From NCBI GenBank assembly GCA_011774835.1, contig JAACAK010000049.1, positions 14,114-78,113 on the forward strand: a DNA stretch of 64,000 nt, in the 5' to 3' direction. Below, in pieces: positions 13,265-33,800 of this stretch. The stretch is from Candidatus Kutchimonas denitrificans. GTDB lineage: Bacteria > Gemmatimonadota > Gemmatimonadetes > Palauibacterales > KS3-K002. Made by a program: the position numbers and the translations under genes. The stretch's first letter is position 1. Each line of letters opens with the position of its first letter. Below the pieces are notes generated by a model. It was not told the DNA's origin, ran no database searches, and was given only the letters and a program-made list of their open reading frames with translations.

Positions 13265-16200
13265 ATGATGTCCAACCGTTTCGGCACGGCCGCCCTGGCC
13301 GCGTTGGCGCTGTTCGTCGTCCGCCCCGTCCTCGCCCAGGAGGACTGGGATATCGAGGCCGAGCACGGCCCCGCCACCCTGGTCGAGTTCGAGACCGACG
13401 AGGGGACGTGGATGAACCTCGACGTGAGCCCCGACGGCCGCTGGGTCGTCTTCGAGCTGCTGGGCGACATCTTCCGGGTGCCGATCGCAGGCGGCGCCGC
13501 CGAGCTGCTGTCCGGCGGCGTCTCGTGGGAGCAGCAGCCGCGCTACAGCCCCGACGGGTCGAGGATCGTCTTCGTCAGCGACCGGAACGGGATCGACAAT
13601 CTGTGGCTCATGGACGCGGACGGTTCGAACCGCCGACAGCTGACAGAGCTCACCTCTTCGCTTCCCACCGCACCTTACTGGACGCCGGACGGTGAGTACA
13701 TCGTCGCCAAGCGGCACGTGAAGAACACCCGCTCGCTGGGCGGCGGCGAGCTGTGGATGTTCCACATCCGTGGCGGCTCGGGAGTCAAGCTGGTCGAGAA
13801 GCTGAGCTTCACCTCCGACATGAACGAGCCCGCGGTCTCGCCCGACGGGCGATACGTCTACTACGACTTTACCGGCCCGTTCGATTACAACCGGGACGTC
13901 CACGACGCGATCTTCAACGTCAACCGCTTCGACCGTCAGACCGGCGACATCGAGCCGGTGATCCGCGGCGCGGGCGGCGCGATCCGACCGACGCCGTCGC
14001 CGGACGGGAAGTCGCTGGCGTTCATCCGGCGCGTCGGGCTCGCAACGGTACTCTTCGTACGTGACCTGGCCACGGGGACCGAGCGGTCGGTGTTCGACGG
14101 GCTCGACCGGGACCAGATGGAGACCTGGACCGTGCACGGCGCGTACCCCGCTTACACATGGACGCCCGACTCGGAGCGGATCGTGATCACGTTCGGCGGC
14201 AAGCTGTGGTCGGTGGACGTGGCCACCGGTGAGCCGACGGAGATCCCGTTTCAGGCCCAGCTCAACCAGCGCGTCACCGACGCCCTCCATTTCGACTATC
14301 CGATCTCCGACGACGCCTTCCGCGCCCGGATGATCCGCTGGCCGACGATCACGCCCGACGGCAGGCGACTGGTCTTCCAGGCGGTGGGCCACCTCTACCA
14401 GATGACGCTGCCCGACGGTAGGCCGCAGCGCATCACCGAGCTCGACGCCCTCGAGTACGCGCCGACCCTCTCGCCCGACGGTCGCTGGGTCGCCTTCACG
14501 AGCTGGGATGCCGGCGCCAGCGGCGGCCTGTGGCGGGTGCGGCTGCCCCGCGTCGGGGCGACCGGCAGCCCGGAGCGACTCACGACCGTCCCCGACCAGT
14601 ACGCCAACCCCGCCTACGCGCCCGACGGTTCGACGATCGCCTACCTGCGCGGGAGCGGCCGGGTGAACCGCGGCACCAACCTCGGCTCCGAGTTCTATCT
14701 CGAGATCCGGACGGTGGCCGCCGGCGGCGGCGCCTCGCAGCTGGTGACGACCACGGCGAACCGCGGCGCCAACCGGCGCATGCCGCGGCTGAGCTGGAGC
14801 GCCGACGGCGAACGGCTCCTCTACTCTGAGAGCGCCGACGGGAAGACTTTCCTGACCAGCATCGAGCTGGACGGCAACGGCGAGCGGCGGCTGGCCGCGA
14901 ACGAGAACGCGGAGGAGATGGTGCCGTCGCCGGACGGCCGCTGGGTGGCGTTCAAGGAGCTGCACAACGTCTACGTGGCGCCGCTGCCCGAGGCCGGCGG
15001 TGACCCGCTGACGCTGGAGGCGGCGTCGGCCGGCGTGCCGGTGAAGAAACTGACCCGCTACGGCGGCGACTGGATCGACTGGTCGCCCGACGGTGAGAGC
15101 CTGACCTACGTGTTGGGGCCGACCGTTTACCGTCATGAGCTCGATGTCATCTTCGACGACCAGAACGGATCGGAGCAAGACGGCAACAACATCTTCGCCG
15201 GTGAGATCTTCGGGGTCGAGCTGACCGTCGAAAAGGCGCGGCCGACGGGGGTGGTGGCGCTGACCGGTGCGCGAATCATCACCATGTCCGGGGACCAGAT
15301 CATTGAGGACGGGACGCTGGTGGCGGATGGCCCCCGTATCGCGGCGGTGGGCCCGGCCGACGAAGTCGAGATTCCTGCCGGTGCCCGTGCCATCGACGCG
15401 AGCGGCAAGACGATCATCCCCGGGCTGGTCGACGTCCACGCCCACATGGGCTACGCGGCGCTGGACATCAACCCGGAACGGTTCTGGCCGTATTACGCCA
15501 ACCTGGCGTACGGGGTCACCTCGACACTCGACCCGTCGGCCAGCACGCAGGCCGTGTTCGCCCAGGCCGAGATGGTGGAGGCCGGCCTGATGGTCGGGCC
15601 GCGGATCTACTCCACCGGCTTCGTCCTCTACGGCGCCGAGAACCCGAACAAGGCGGTGGTGACGAGCCTCGAGGACGCCCGCTACCACGTCCGCCGGCAC
15701 AAGGCCCAGGGCGCCACCGCGGTGAAGAGCTACAACCAGCTGCGGCGCGACGTACGCCAGTGGATCATCGAGGCGGCCCGGGAAGAGGAGATCCTGGTCG
15801 TGCCGGAAGGCGGCTCGATGTACCAACAGAACATGACAATGGTGCTGGACGGGCATACCGGCATCGAGCATGCCATTCCGCTGGCGCCGCTCCACCGCGA
15901 CGCGCTGACCCTGATAGGCCGCAGCGCCACCGGATACACCCCGACGCTCATCGTCGGCTACGGCGGCGTCTGGGGCGAGAACTACTGGTACTTCCACGAC
16001 GACGTGTTCGAGGACGAGCGGCTGCTCCGCTTCACCCCGCAGGGCATCCTCGACGCCCGGGCACGCCGGCGAATGGTGGTGCCGGAGGAGGAGTGGAACC
16101 ACTTCGAGCTGGCCCGGGCCGCGAAGGCGATCGTGGATGCCGGCGGCCGCGTTCAGCTGGGCGCCCACGGCCAGCTGCAGGGGCTGGGCGCCCACTGGGA

Positions 16201-16477
16201 GCTCTGGATGCTGGAGCAGGGCGGCATGACGCCCCTGGAGGCGCTGCGCGCCGGGACGTTGTGGGGCGCCGAGTACGCCGGGATCGGAAACGACGTCGGC
16301 TCCCTCGAGCCCGGCAAGCTGGCCGACCTGATCGTCCTCGACGCCAACCCGCTCGACGACATCCGCAACAGCGAGCGGGTCCACATGGTGATGAAGAACG
16401 GGTTCCTGTACGACGAGGACATGAACGAGGTGTGGCCAGAGTCCCGGCCGCGAGGCGAATTCCGCTGGCAGCGATGA
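13265..16477 (+). CDS. Secreted TolB-like beta-propeller + amidohydrolase-family (metal-dependent hydrolase) fusion protein
   Basis: Signal peptide AALAALALFVVRPVLAQE. Repeated SPDG(R/S)..(F/Y) propeller blades. C-terminal amidohydrolase motifs GLVDVHAHMGY and ..PGKLADLIVLDANPL. Confidence 0.88.
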   Translation: MMSNRFGTAALAALALFVVRPVLAQEDWDIEAEHGPATLVEFETDEGTWMNLDVSPDGRWVVFELLGDIFRVPIAGGAAELLSGGVSWEQQPRYSPDGSRIVFVSDRNGIDNLWLMDADGSNRRQLTELTSSLPTAPYWTPDGEYIVAKRHVKNTRSLGGGELWMFHIRGGSGVKLVEKLSFTSDMNEPAVSPDGRYVYYDFTGPFDYNRDVHDAIFNVNRFDRQTGDIEPVIRGAGGAIRPTPSPDGKSLAFIRRVGLATVLFVRDLATGTERSVFDGLDRDQMETWTVHGAYPAYTWTPDSERIVITFGGKLWSVDVATGEPTEIPFQAQLNQRVTDALHFDYPISDDAFRARMIRWPTITPDGRRLVFQAVGHLYQMTLPDGRPQRITELDALEYAPTLSPDGRWVAFTSWDAGASGGLWRVRLPRVGATGSPERLTTVPDQYANPAYAPDGSTIAYLRGSGRVNRGTNLGSEFYLEIRTVAAGGGASQLVTTTANRGANRRMPRLSWSADGERLLYSESADGKTFLTSIELDGNGERRLAANENAEEMVPSPDGRWVAFKELHNVYVAPLPEAGGDPLTLEAASAGVPVKKLTRYGGDWIDWSPDGESLTYVLGPTVYRHELDVIFDDQNGSEQDGNNIFAGEIFGVELTVEKARPTGVVALTGARIITMSGDQIIEDGTLVADGPRIAAVGPADEVEIPAGARAIDASGKTIIPGLVDVHAHMGYAALDINPERFWPYYANLAYGVTSTLDPSASTQAVFAQAEMVEAGLMVGPRIYSTGFVLYGAENPNKAVVTSLEDARYHVRRHKAQGATAVKSYNQLRRDVRQWIIEAAREEEILVVPEGGSMYQQNMTMVLDGHTGIEHAIPLAPLHRDALTLIGRSATGYTPTLIVGYGGVWGENYWYFHDDVFEDERLLRFTPQGILDARARRRMVVPEEEWNHFELARAAKAIVDAGGRVQLGAHGQLQGLGAHWELWMLEQGGMTPLEALRAGTLWGAEYAGIGNDVGSLEPGKLADLIVLDANPLDDIRNSERVHMVMKNGFLYDEDMNEVWPESRPRGEFRWQR

Positions 16478-16502
16478 ACTCCGCCACAGGATCGATTGGG
16501 CA

Positions 16503-16598
16503 GGTGAACATCGAACATCCGACGTCCAACGTCCAACATCGAACGGAGCTGACAACCTTCAACGTTGGACGTTGGATGTTGGACGTTGGATGTTCACC
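16503..16598. repeat. Inverted arrays of heptamer repeats (CAACRTC x5-6 facing TTGGAYG x5-6) forming a ~45-bp imperfect hairpin
   Basis: Read directly: GGTGAACATC-GAACATC-CGACGTC-CAACGTC-CAACATC-GAACG ... AACG-TTGGACG-TTGGATG-TTGGACG-TTGGATG-TTCACC. The outer 10 bp are perfectly complementary. Confidence 0.85.
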
Positions 16599-17250
16599 CG
16601 CCGCCATCTTGATGCTGGCAACATCCCTCGCAGCCCAAGCAACCGACCCGATCGTGCGCGCCGGCTTCGGCGACGGCTGGGAGACGCGCTGGGAAGAAGT
16701 CCAACTGGATCAACGCGTCAACCGCTTCGAGCCAATCCGCGAGGATGGCCGACCCGTGCTCCGCGTCGAGAGCGACGGTTCCGCCTCGGCCCTATCCTAC
16801 ATGCTGGAGCTGGCGCCCGAGACGGTCGGTGCCATCTCCTGGTCCTGGAAAGTCGAGTCGGCCATCGGCCATGATCGCAGCGAGCGCGAGAAGGCCGGCG
16901 ACGATTACGCCGCTCGCTTCTTTGTCATCTTCGACGATGAGCCGTTCAGCCGGGGGGCACGGGCCATCTGTTACGTCTGGGCGGGCGCCGAGCCGGTGAG
17001 GGCCACGTTTCGCAACCCCTACATCTCCGAAGTGGCGACGATTGTCCTGCAGTCCGGCGACGACCGGGCTGGCGTCTGGATAACCGAAGAGCGCGACGTG
17101 CTGGCCGACTATGTCGCCGCCTTCGACGAGCGGCCGGAGCGCATCACCGGCGTCGCGGTCATGGTCGATACCGACGACACCGGGACCCACGCCACGGCCT
17201 GGTTCGGCGAGGTCCGGGTCTGGCCGCGGGAAGCCGCGGACGGCAACTGA
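16576..17250 (+). CDS. DUF3047-domain protein (secreted)
   Basis: C-terminal part of track ORF 15760..17250, trimmed to ATG 16576 (MLDVGCSPAAILMLATSLAAQA). An alternative ATG is at 16612. Motifs RFEPIREDGRPVLRVESDGSASAL and DDYAARFFVIFD. The start lies inside the right arm of the repeat. Confidence 0.7.
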   Translation: MLDVGCSPAAILMLATSLAAQATDPIVRAGFGDGWETRWEEVQLDQRVNRFEPIREDGRPVLRVESDGSASALSYMLELAPETVGAISWSWKVESAIGHDRSEREKAGDDYAARFFVIFDDEPFSRGARAICYVWAGAEPVRATFRNPYISEVATIVLQSGDDRAGVWITEERDVLADYVAAFDERPERITGVAVMVDTDDTGTHATAWFGEVRVWPREAADGN

Positions 17251-22791: not shown

Positions 22792-24295
22792 CCCGACGGG
22801 CTGGCGGCGGCTGCACCCCGTCACACCGCTCTTCCGATCGCTGCAGCTGCTCTACGGCTACGCGATCGGCGTGCTGGCCGCCTCGCTCAGCGTCGGCCTT
22901 TCCCTCGCCTTCATCATCGGGTTCGGCGTCCTGATCGCGGGCTGGGCCGTGCTCTCCTACCTGCGCTTCAGCTATCGGGTGGACGAGGAGGGGCTGGTGG
23001 TCAAGCACGGCGTTCTGATGCGGCAGCGGCGGGTGATCCCGAAATCACGCATCCAGAACGTCGACCTGCGCTCCGGCCTCCTGCAGCAGCTGTTCGGCGT
23101 GGCGACGGCCCGGATCGAGACCGCCGGCGGCGGCGGCAGCGAAGCGTCGCTTCACGTGGTCGGGCACGAGGAGGGCGTCCGACTGCGGAACGCGCTGGTC
23201 GGGCGTTTCAGCGACTTCGCGGCGGCGCCCGTCGCCGGGGAGAGCGAAGCCGAAGCCCGGTCGCGGCTCGACACATCGGAGCGCCAGGTCGGGTTGCTCG
23301 ACCTGGTCATCGCCGGTGCCACGTCGAACCGGGCCGGCGTGCTGGTCGGGGCGCTGCTGGGGCTCGATTACGTGTTCGGTGTCGTGCCGACCGACTGGCT
23401 GCTCAGGCGCGTCATGCCGCCCGAGCTGCTGGCGCCGGAGACCGCCGCGAACGCGCTGGTCGAGGCGGCGGGGCGCGACCTGAGCGCGTTCCTCGTCGGC
23501 CTCGCGGCGCTGACGATCTTCTTCGGCGTCGCCGGCTGGGGGCTATCGATCCTGATGAGCGTGGTCCGCTACTTCGGGTTCACGCTGCGCCGGATCGGCG
23601 GCGAGCTCCAGGTGAGCTACGGCCTGTTCACGCGTCGTGAGAAGGGGCTCCGCCGCAGCCGGGTCCAGAACGTCCAGATCGAGGAGCCCATCCTGCGACG
23701 CTGGCTGGGCCTCGCCACCGTGAAGGTGCAGACGGCGGGCTACGGCCCGGAGCTGAAGGCCGACGAGCGGATGGAGGTCCTGGCACCGATCGCCAAGCGC
23801 CGCGAGATGGCCGCCTATGTCCAGGAGGTCTTTCCCGATCTCGACCCGTCATCGATCGACTGGCGGCCATCTCATCCACGGGCGCGTCGCCGCATGTTCC
23901 TCCGGCGCGCCGCCGTCATCGTTCTGGTCGTCGCCGTCCTCTCGATCATCAGCCTGCACGCCCTGCTCCTGCTGCTGGCGCTGGCGCCCGCTTGGCTGTT
24001 GGCGCACGCTCATTACCGTCACCTGGGTCACGCGCGCTCGGGCTCCTTCGTGCTGACCCGCGAGGGACTGTGGACGCGCCGCAGCTACATCGTCCCGGTT
24101 CGCAAGATCCAGGCGCTCCACTTCCGGCAGACGCCTTTCCAGCGACGGCTCCGGATCGGAACGCTCACCGTCGAGACGGCGGGGAACCCGCTGGACTGGC
24201 ACGCGCCCCGGACCATCGATCTGGGACTGGACTATGGACGCGAGCTTCAGGCGAAGCTGGGGACGGAAGTCACGGCGACGGGCCTCGTCTTCTAG
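22778..24295 (+). CDS. YdbT-like membrane protein with three bPH_2 domains
   Basis: Trimmed to ATG 22778. Three repeats of the ..R..IP..RIQNV....(L/F)(L/F)QR..G(L/V)ATV...TAG pattern. Overlaps the ydbS-like gene by 14 nt. Confidence 0.8.
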   Translation: MSGPDPTGWRRLHPVTPLFRSLQLLYGYAIGVLAASLSVGLSLAFIIGFGVLIAGWAVLSYLRFSYRVDEEGLVVKHGVLMRQRRVIPKSRIQNVDLRSGLLQQLFGVATARIETAGGGGSEASLHVVGHEEGVRLRNALVGRFSDFAAAPVAGESEAEARSRLDTSERQVGLLDLVIAGATSNRAGVLVGALLGLDYVFGVVPTDWLLRRVMPPELLAPETAANALVEAAGRDLSAFLVGLAALTIFFGVAGWGLSILMSVVRYFGFTLRRIGGELQVSYGLFTRREKGLRRSRVQNVQIEEPILRRWLGLATVKVQTAGYGPELKADERMEVLAPIAKRREMAAYVQEVFPDLDPSSIDWRPSHPRARRRMFLRRAAVIVLVVAVLSIISLHALLLLLALAPAWLLAHAHYRHLGHARSGSFVLTREGLWTRRSYIVPVRKIQALHFRQTPFQRRLRIGTLTVETAGNPLDWHAPRTIDLGLDYGRELQAKLGTEVTATGLVF

Positions 24296-24411
24296 TGGGA
24301 ATCCCCAAATCGTCTTCGACAATTCGGAGAGACTGAAGATTCTCGAAATCAGAATCCCGACCTCAAATTCCAAATCCCAATTCCCAACTCCCGGAATTCC
24401 GAATTCCGATC
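24296..24411 (+). repeat. Intergenic repeat element, copy A: GAATCCCC + conserved core + AAWTCCC heptamer run
   Basis: Fills the whole convergent gap. The 19-nt core CTTCGACAATTCGGAGAGA (24314-24332) is identical to 33729-33747. Followed by aaattcc-aaatccc-aattccc-aactccc-ggaattcc-gaattcc. Confidence 0.8.
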
Positions 24412-25086
24412 TCAGGATTCCCTCTCCACATCCGGGTGCCGGATCATCTTGCCTTCCACCAGGTAAACGACGTCTTCACCGATGTTCGTCGCCAGGTCGG
24501 CGATCCGCTCGATATTGCGGCCGACGAGGATGAACGACAGCGCGGTGCCGATCTTCGTCGGCGACTCCATCATCATCGTGATCGCCGACCGCAGGTGCGA
24601 CTCGTGTAGCTGATCGACCCGGTCGTCACGCGCCGTCACATCCCGAGCCTTGGCGACGTCGTGCTGGACGAACGCGTCGAGCACGTCGCGCAGCATCCCC
24701 TGTGCTATGACCGCCGCTTCCGAGAGCTCGATGGGAAGTGCCCAGTCGGAATCCCGCTCGATGAGTCGCTCCGCCGTCTCCGCGATGTTCACCGCGTGAT
24801 CGCCGATCCGCTCCAGGTCGTTGTTGATCTTCAGCACCGCGACCAGCCGTCTCAAGTCACCTGCCATCGGCTGCTGCAACGCCATCAGCTCGACGCACTC
24901 CTCCTCGATCTCGACTTCGGTCGCGTCGATCTCGCGGTCCCCCATGATGACGGCTTCGGCCTTGTTGGCGTCTCGCTCGCTCAACGCCTCGAGGGCCGTC
25001 TCCATCAATCCCTCGATCATGCGCGACATGGCCACCAGACGTCCCGTCAGGTCGTCGAGTCTGCTCTCGAAGTGCGCTCGGGTCAT
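24412..25086 (-). CDS. phoU: Phosphate signalling complex protein PhoU
   Basis: 224 aa. Duplicated PhoU motif (..NNDLERIGDHAVNIAE.. and ..GRNIERIADLATNIGE..). Last gene of the pst operon. Confidence 0.95.
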   Translation of the reverse strand: MTRAHFESRLDDLTGRLVAMSRMIEGLMETALEALSERDANKAEAVIMGDREIDATEVEIEEECVELMALQQPMAGDLRRLVAVLKINNDLERIGDHAVNIAETAERLIERDSDWALPIELSEAAVIAQGMLRDVLDAFVQHDVAKARDVTARDDRVDQLHESHLRSAITMMMESPTKIGTALSFILVGRNIERIADLATNIGEDVVYLVEGKMIRHPDVERES

Positions 25087-33482: not shown

Positions 33483-33800
33483 GGGGAATCTGCAATCCCG
33501 AGTTCGGGGATTTCAGTTCGGGGAATCGCAACTCGGAGTTCACAGCTGGGGATTCTGAGGTCGGGATTCTGATTTGGGGAAGACCGAGTTCTCCCCGAAT
33601 TGCTGAAGTGGATTCGGGGATTCGGGGGTTCGGGGATTCGGGCAACTACGAAGTGATGCCATAGCGGTGCGGCTCGCTGATGCTTTCCTACCTCCCCGAA
33701 TTACCGAATCCCCGAATCCCCGAGTCAGCTTCGACAATTCGGAGAGAACTGGAACTTCCCCAAGTTGGAATCCCGATATCCGACTTCAATATTCCCAAGA
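33483..33800 (+). repeat. Intergenic repeat region: ~14-nt and 8-nt GGGGATTC-type tandem arrays, an inverted GGGGATTC/GAATCCCC pair, and copy B of the conserved-core element
   Basis: Read directly. 33500-33585: agttcggggatttc-like units. 33611-33643: GGGGATTC-GGGGGTTC-GGGGATTC, facing 33695-33724 CCGAATCC-CCGAATCC-CCGAG. Core at 33729-33747. Confidence 0.8.

Follow-up and report, generated by a model that had tools for sequence, protein, structure and literature searches.

Foldback repeats behind stop codons in Candidatus Kutchimonas denitrificans: probable gene-less derivatives of a PF05635 cassette of the intervening-sequence type

Introduction

The intervening sequences (IVSs) of 23S rRNA that carry an S23p open reading frame (ORF), found in Leptospira and Coxiella, have terminal inverted repeats and form a long stem; they are suspected of being selfish or mobile, and their function is not known (PMC4990558). 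Here we describe repeats in a 64,000-nucleotide (nt) stretch of DNA from Candidatus Kutchimonas denitrificans (the window, C105:14114-78113, with C denoting contigs), taken from an assembly (G000) of 3.76 Mb in 149 contigs that has 66.6% GC and is 86.6% complete. The two copies of interest, A and B, are probably members of a genome-wide family of foldback repeats and gene-less, non-autonomous derivatives, resembling MITEs (miniature inverted-repeat transposable elements), of an IVS-type cassette that encodes a PF05635 protein.

The one copy of the family that carries a gene, on contig C123, is like the 23S IVSs in that a PF05635 ORF stands between inverted repeats forming a long stem, with no known transposase. 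The family differs from them in lying behind the stop codons of protein genes and not in rRNA, in having arms composed partly of tandem 7-8-nt words, and in its many gene-less copies. Copies A and B themselves have no ORF, and excision by RNase III, which is known for the IVSs, is a proposal here.

Tandem G-rich heptamers of Xanthomonas and Nostoc (GGGAATC / GGGGAYT) often form convergent inverted pairs near stop codons; Rehm et al. (2015, PMC4692102) report no association of these with any gene or mobile element. The present repeats share with them G-rich tandem words of 7-8 nt (the outer words are GGGAATC-like), the arrangement as inverted pairs, and a site that overlaps ORF ends or is at most a few tens of nt from a stop codon. 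The differences are that the words here are only part of a longer arm, which has a unique 60-nt module and a cognate PF05635 gene, and that the preference for four units described in PMC4692102 is not seen.

Repetitive extragenic palindromic (REP) sequences form non-autonomous hairpin doublets (REPINs), of which several families may occur in a genome, each with one flanked RAYT gene (Bertels and Rainey 2011, PMC3116915). As with REPINs, singlets in the present family look like decay products (22 inverted pairs stand beside 21 solo or decayed arms); a REP unit, however, is an imperfect palindrome of 20-40 nt, whereas the arm here is about 100 nt long and non-palindromic and the linked gene does not encode a Y1 transposase. 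The Correia/NEMIS, ERIC/IRU and Rickettsia palindromic elements are intergenic, 100-250 bp long, have dyad symmetry over nearly their whole length, are often co-transcribed and sometimes extend into coding ends. The present family is similar to these in size, dyad symmetry, intergenic site and reach into coding ends, and differs in its hypervariable loop and word-array arms, in the lack of a transposase in the apparent parent, and in that target duplications are not seen. Lastly, the Avd proteins of diversity-generating retroelements (DGRs; bAvd, PDB 4DWL) are related to PF05635 (PMC10053308), and PF05635-like four-helix bundles form pentamers and bind nucleic acid (PMC10053308, PMC4990558). 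The likeness to DGRs is confined to the protein family: the genome has no reverse transcriptase, there is no template/variable repeat pair, and the cassette is only ~640 bp long.

Repeat copies in the window

An earlier, sequence-only reading of the window had pointed to a 19-nt core, CTTCGACAATTCGGAGAGA, in two intergenic copies of the same orientation. The core is indeed present at window 24314-24332 (copy A) and 33729-33747 (copy B), on the + strand in both. Alignment also bears out GAATCCCC at 7 nt 5' of the core in A and B, with 30 of 34 nt the same through the core end; the 1-nt indel reported before GAATCCCGA is real, although this motif lies 19 nt (A) and 20 nt (B) past the core and not 20 and 21. 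Copy A fills a convergent gap, as had been proposed, which runs from the TAG stop (24293-24295) of a bPH_2 (YdbT-like) gene to a PhoU gene. Copy B lies between a Na+/H+ antiporter gene (before) and a metallo-beta-lactamase-fold gene (after). An inverted copy of the same arm at 33554-33652 had been overlooked, and its presence makes copy B the right arm of a long palindrome, referred to below as element B. The features of the two loci are as follows.

24296..24414, + strand: copy A, a truncated solo arm (nhmmer C105:38384-38505 = window 24271-24392, E = 2e-23; alignment)
24412..24423, - strand: last codons and stop of the PhoU gene (…HPDV-ERES*), inside the terminal GGGAATCC word of copy A
33483..33553, - strand: element B left arm, outer zone; degenerate GGGGAAT/GGGGATT words directly past the TGA stop of the antiporter gene
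33554..33639, - strand: element B left arm; unique module and four GGGGATTC words (nhmmer C105:47639-47778, E = 8e-35)
33640..33697, + strand: element B centre; inner box a, loop and inner box b (centres aligned)
33698..33800, + strand: element B right arm, which is copy B (nhmmer C105:47779-47925, E = 5e-37)

By repeat search, the arms of element B are 99 nt long, 78% complementary and spaced by 32 nt, and the whole folds at -154 kcal/mol (z = -12.5). Its centre is made up of two inner boxes, a (GGGCAACTACGAAGTG, 33640-33655) and b (TTCCTACCTCCCC, 33685-33697), on either side of a unique ~29-nt loop (33656-33684). The right arm has CCCCGAAT words followed by the core (33729-33747) and then GGAATCCCGA (33767-33776), and its outer zone is short. 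Copy A retains one GAATCCCC word, the unique module (from the core at 24314-24332 to the AGAATCCCGA motif at 24351-24360) and, outside this, degenerate (A/T)TCCC words in a long run; it lacks the inner word array, the centre and the partner arm, and on its own it folds no better than shuffled sequence (z = -0.40). We read element B as a complete gene-less hairpin and copy A as a decayed half, one arm cut inside the word array. Neither copy is a device specific to the neighboring genes or a dedicated regulator of them.

Size and anatomy of the repeat family

Across the 3.76 Mb of the genome, an nhmmer arm model finds 65 arms at E < 1e-15 and blastn finds ~51 loci, numbers far beyond chance, which answers the genome-wide copy count that the sequence-only reading had proposed as a check. 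Of the 65 arms, 21 are solo or decayed and the rest make up 22 inverted pairs, which form hairpins of 230-280 nt with folding energies of -120 to -190 kcal/mol. The family is non-coding and small, with inverted termini, and its arm of ~100 nt is not itself palindromic. From the centre outward, each arm runs through an inner box, two to four tandem CCCCGAAT words (GGGGATTC in left-arm orientation), a unique, non-repetitive module of ~60 nt (GAATCCGCTTCGACAATTCGGAGAGAACTCGAACTTCCCCAAATCAGAATCCCGA) that contains the 19-nt core and is the best conserved part of the arm, and an outer zone with a variable run of degenerate (A/T)TCCC words (GGGAATC-like). The 98-nt arm consensus has a GC content of 56%, compared with 66% in the loops and 66.6% in the genome.

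The arms are 83% identical, yet the loops of 20-36 nt are similar only at the level of chance (0.54 vs 0.49 for shuffled sequences). Two origins considered for the loop were rejected: it is not a built-in terminator or an extension of the palindrome, as its self-complementarity does not exceed that of shuffles (mean z = -0.01), nor does it derive from the gene or from captured stretches of the genome, as it has no significant match to the C123 gene or elsewhere (one borderline 18-nt match arose among 21 queries). Arm loss is one-sided, with at least 12 solo arms keeping the arm on the stop-codon side and only two keeping the other. The locus C131:34562-34652 is a shortened member: an internal deletion has taken both word arrays and the centre, so that outer left-arm sequence is fused directly to a right-arm core.

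The gene-carrying cassette

One arm pair, C123:141752-141882 (- strand) and 142261-142389 (+ strand), is set ~380 nt apart instead of the usual ~55. It spans C123:141752-142389 (~640 bp), has unrelated genes on either side, and its arms make up an inverted repeat of 92 nt at 93%. The interval contains an intact 128-amino-acid (aa) ORF (gene ~390 nt), whose product scores above the cut-off for PF05635 (E = 1e-12), reaches 73 bits with TIGR02436 'four helix bundle protein', for which the cut-off is 24, and also matches PDB 2RLD (E = 2e-9). The left arm of this copy is the closest of all arms to the family consensus (96%), with the right arm at 93%. It is the only gene-carrying copy of the family in the genome, one of the 22 pairs. 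Membership of PF05635 in the HEPN RNase superfamily was considered and dropped, as a survey of HEPN proteins does not mention it.

The centers of the gene-less copies, 50-65 nt long, resemble this cassette with its gene removed. When oriented, 21 of them read GGGGAAAGACGAAGTG, then 20-36 variable nt, then (GCCGC)CACTTCCNACCTCCCC, with fixed polarity; the C123 copy, in gene orientation, reads …GGGGGATGAGTG (start), the gene, and TAG-CCGCCACTTGCCTATCTCCCC. Because the gene-less layout mirrors the C123 copy in this way, the two center boxes correspond to the regions beside the start and stop codons of the gene. One gene-less copy, on contig C130, still reads GGGGAAAGATGAGGTGA.

Directly upstream of the C123 cassette, on the strand of the gene, is a canonical intrinsic terminator (GGGGCCCGGCGAGTTCGTCGGGCCCC with TTTTCTTT; L147 764-789, minus), and several cassettes in different genomes have in common a TTGTTGAGGG…GATGATGG box outside their upstream arm.

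PF05635 genes and their word vocabularies

The design is not confined to one gene. Each of the six PF05635 genes of G000 is flanked by inverted arrays of short tandem words and has a vocabulary of its own: GTGCGTTA, GGTGTGCG, GTAGTGG, CCCCGAAT, an AT-rich set, and GAACATC/CAACGTC. Every vocabulary occurs at 11-21 loci in the genome, of which one or two are at the gene itself and the rest are gene-less, several of them hairpins. One of the six, the PF05635 gene at C1:21648-21965 (L011), has an in-frame TGA and keeps its GTGCGTTA word arrays on both sides; it is probably a pseudogene and possibly a recoded gene.

In the genomes of three relatives (G001, G002 and G015), nearly all of 16 PF05635 genes show the same arrangement of a gene between inverted arrays. 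G002 contains a CCCCGAAT cassette with short arms (GAATTCTCGAA…GGGGAATCGGGG…), which are found there also as short gene-less pairs. In a protein tree of the four genomes, clades follow the flank vocabulary, with supports of 95/94 for the CCCCGAAT-type clade, 97/95 for the GAACATC clade and 100/99 for the CGACAGC clade. More widely, a subfamily profile finds at least 575 relatives in Gemmatimonadota, Planctomycetota, Verrucomicrobiota, Bacteroidota, Acidobacteriota and others. Among the 73 relatives with both flanks, an inverted repeat that hugs the gene and scores at least 30 bits is present in 62%, compared with 0.7% of 150 small control genes. In viral contigs the protein had no relatives.

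Position at gene ends

The position of the repeats relative to genes was assessed with our own crude codon-bias gene caller, which covers 85% of the genome. Of 44 classifiable loci, 21 are in convergent spacers, compared with 14.3% expected by count (p = 1e-7) or 18% of insertions expected by intergenic length; 20 are in tandem spacers (71.2% expected by count) and three in divergent spacers (14.4% expected). A facing stop codon lies within 30 nt of the outer end of 37 of the 65 arms, as against 5.4% of random intergenic points, and TAG accounts for 21 of 41 adjacent stops compared with 31% genome-wide (p = 0.005). All copies lie between protein genes and none is in helix 25 or helix 45 of 23S rRNA; the window itself contains no rRNA.

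Adjoining ORFs often run into the terminal words and end within them, so that elements sometimes supply the stop codon. TAG|GGAATC and TGA|TGGGA are recurrent junctions, and the end words TGATGGGA and TAGGGAATC are often the last codons and stop of the neighboring gene. The PhoU gene beside copy A is one such case, and its ortholog in G001 ends HPDV-QEQ*, within a different word hairpin. The repeats therefore rewrite the last codons and stops of ordinary genes such as PhoU, and they break assemblies; for both reasons annotation pipelines should recognize them.

Turnover between species

The whole arm is found within the genus only, at 73-82% identity; another genus shares the octamer array alone. 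About 79 kb of C105 is syntenic with contig C22 of G001, and at none of five element sites in this stretch do both genomes have the same family: two sites hold different families, two are filled in G000 only and one in G001 only. The YdbT/PhoU spacer of copy A is among those filled differently, and element B is at one of the sites filled in G000 only (synteny with G001 stops at window 33488, in its left outer zone). The G001 spacer orthologous to copy A (L020 3304-3385) holds an unrelated hairpin of GGTGGNT / CCTACCA words; the second differently filled spacer is C105:8576-8663 against G001:C22:45168-45268.

Comparison with G002 gives a similar picture. Seventeen element sites of G002 are informative, and at least 10 of them are without the family in G000, with clean empty sites at C133:2697-2711 and C147:7770-7810, and two sites are common to both genomes. 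The first follows a tRNA gene and its terminator, where G000 has a long solo arm (C112:20186-20311, L144) and G002 a short pair (L134), the element beginning at the same TTGGGAAT in both species; the long arm at this site looks like the short arm with an extra module of ~55 nt. At the second, G000 has a chimera (C22:4623-4800, L145) of a left arm made of GTAGTGG words and a right arm of the CCCCGAAT family, and G002 has a normal short pair (L137 2711-2857). The elements come, go and replace one another at favored spots behind genes. An exact-protein look-up for close strains matched no record.

Interpretation and alternatives

The findings above are best accommodated, with reasonable though not full confidence, if copies A and B descend from an ancestral cassette in which two inverted arms of ~100-130 nt enclosed a PF05635/TIGR02436 (S23p/Avd-like) gene of ~390 nt. 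In the gene-less copies the gene would have been replaced by a center of 50-65 nt that keeps the boxes beside the start and stop codons. Insertion, or survival of the inserted copy, would be almost confined to places directly behind stop codons. The pentamer-forming protein may recognize its own family's arms or tandem words, which would make these the protein-binding sites that the sequence-only reading had listed among candidate roles, and so allow gene-less copies to spread in trans, with the chemistry left to replication or repair enzymes of the host; the long stem, when transcribed as a 3' tail, could be cut by RNase III in the manner of 23S IVS stems. Repeats of this broad kind are known; the family itself is undescribed, and what is unusual about it is the link to IVS-protein cassettes.

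Several observations weigh against this derivation. To our knowledge, PF05635 proteins have no known catalytic activity, and no enzyme of movement was identified here. PF01797 (RAYT/Y1) has no match in the 86.6%-complete genome, although 6 of 14 control genomes are positive, and PF00078 (reverse transcriptase) likewise has none; the latter result also removed retro-copying, a route suggested by the kinship with Avd and by the one-sided loss of arms. No sharp termini or target-site duplications were seen, the two comparisons of empty with filled sites being too diverged at the junctions to reveal duplications, and the outer zone being variable in its run of degenerate words. The C123 cassette itself looks more resident than mobile, with relatives at a conserved site in G001 and G015. 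Simple copying followed by decay does not predict loops of chance-level similarity beside arms that are 83% identical, a contrast that could reflect arms kept by selection or gene conversion. In addition, the preference for gene ends depends on the crude gene caller described above.

Selection by the host is the premise of the first alternative, that the repeats are 3'-end RNA elements kept because they are useful, be it as terminators that lack a U-tract or act in both directions, as 3' stabilizers against exonucleases, or as sources of small RNAs from 3' untranslated regions. Tight placement behind stops, enrichment between convergent genes, the very stable fold of element B and arms far better conserved than loops would all suit such a function, as would the finding that Xanthomonas GGGAATC repeats at like positions are mostly transcribed (PMC4692102). 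The signature of a maintained structure is missing, however: the two arms of an element share 64 deviations from the consensus, compared with 63.9 +/- 6.3 for random pairings, and arms of the same element are no more alike than arms of different elements. Together with the insignificant fold of copy A, this absence of compensatory change leaves the conserved RNA structure that the sequence-only reading had considered unsupported. About one-third of the loci, copy A included, are solo arms unable to fold, and inside the elements there are no consensus promoters or T-run terminators of note. The orthologous spacers of congeners hold different families or nothing. The Rfam search that the same reading had suggested matched no described RNA family, with no hit at gathering score over the whole window and nothing at copy A; at relaxed settings element B gave eukaryotic microRNA-hairpin noise (29 bits against a gathering score of 90). 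We consider a host-selected RNA element unlikely.

The order of events could instead be reversed, with the hairpins first and the PF05635 gene a passenger that homes into hairpin loops, which would make the gene-carrying copy a parasitized hairpin and not the parent. Only one pair in 22 contains the gene, and 23S rRNA IVSs sit at the tips of helices, helices 25 and 45 (PMC4990558). Against this stand the co-divergence of protein clades and flank vocabularies across four genomes, the presence of separate arms at each PF05635 gene that was examined, and the boxes kept in gene-less centers, which match the surroundings of the start and stop of the gene. This order of events seems to us quite improbable.

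A third possibility, which we regard as very unlikely, is that the repeats are ordinary MITEs, with the PF05635 gene as cargo and with a DDE or other transposase supplied from another place, for instance an unassembled insertion sequence, a plasmid or a contig gap. Small elements in many copies that have inverted termini, with empty sites in a congener, are what a MITE would give, and an assembly that is 86.6% complete in 149 contigs leaves room for a missing enzyme. On the other side, nowhere in the genome do arms enclose anything larger than the ~390-nt gene, target duplications and sharp ends are not seen, and the design of a gene with arms recurs in six vocabularies and across phyla with no adjoining transposase. 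Plasmid and phage records contained nothing similar. The label 'REP/MITE-like' in the sequence-only reading thus holds for a many-copy, non-coding inverted-repeat family at gene ends that turns over between related species; it does not hold for REP or REPIN, since no Y1/RAYT gene is found in the genome and the gene-bearing copy encodes a PF05635 protein and no transposase.

Action on DNA rather than RNA, in which the G-rich (GGGGATTC)n arrays form G-quadruplexes (G4) or bind a nucleoid protein as chromosomal structure elements, is scarcely tenable. Related GGGAATC words do form G4 in vitro (PMC4692102) and each arm has two to four such words, but uninterrupted CCCC tracts number two in 26 arms, three in 23, one in 12 and four in two, so that only 2 of the 65 arms have the four uninterrupted C4/G4 tracts; many words are broken (GGTG, GGAG), and the best-conserved part of the arm is the non-repetitive 60-nt module. 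Finally, a REPIN-type element mobilized by a RAYT (Y1 transposase), which the inverted doublets forming hairpins and the presence in one genome of several families that each go with a single flanked gene, in the logic of REPINs and RAYTs (PMC3116915), might bring to mind, can be dismissed almost outright, because PF01797 is unmatched in the 86.6%-complete genome while control genomes include positives, the arms are not short REP palindromes and the flanked gene encodes a four-helix bundle.

Returning to descent from a PF05635 cassette, a wider proposal may be put forward tentatively, as a possibility that we hold with considerable doubt: that word hairpins and PF05635 genes constitute one widespread, unrecognized class of mobile element without a conventional transposase, in which the protein would read its own words and promote gene-less copying behind stops. 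The 23S IVSs would then be a special case and the heptamers of Xanthomonas and cyanobacteria satellites, and the chance-level loops and survival of stop-side arms could be footprints of a polar copying process that rebuilds the center. Three puzzles, each decades old and lacking a mechanism, meet in this one system: the role of the S23p/IVS protein, the spread of 23S IVSs, and the nature of the 7-8-nt tandem repeats that abound at bacterial gene ends. One genome offers six protein-and-word pairs, each with gene-less satellites, which makes direct tests of binding and mobilization possible.

A second word hairpin in the window

At 16499-16602 the window contains a hairpin of a second family, without a gene, whose 45-nt arms are made of GAACATC/CAACGTC words; the PF05635 gene of that family is at C131:43120-43410. 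The hairpin begins 22 nt past the stop of a gene for a 1070-aa protein (13265-16477) and abuts the start of the next gene, the signal peptide of which looks shortened relative to its G001 ortholog.

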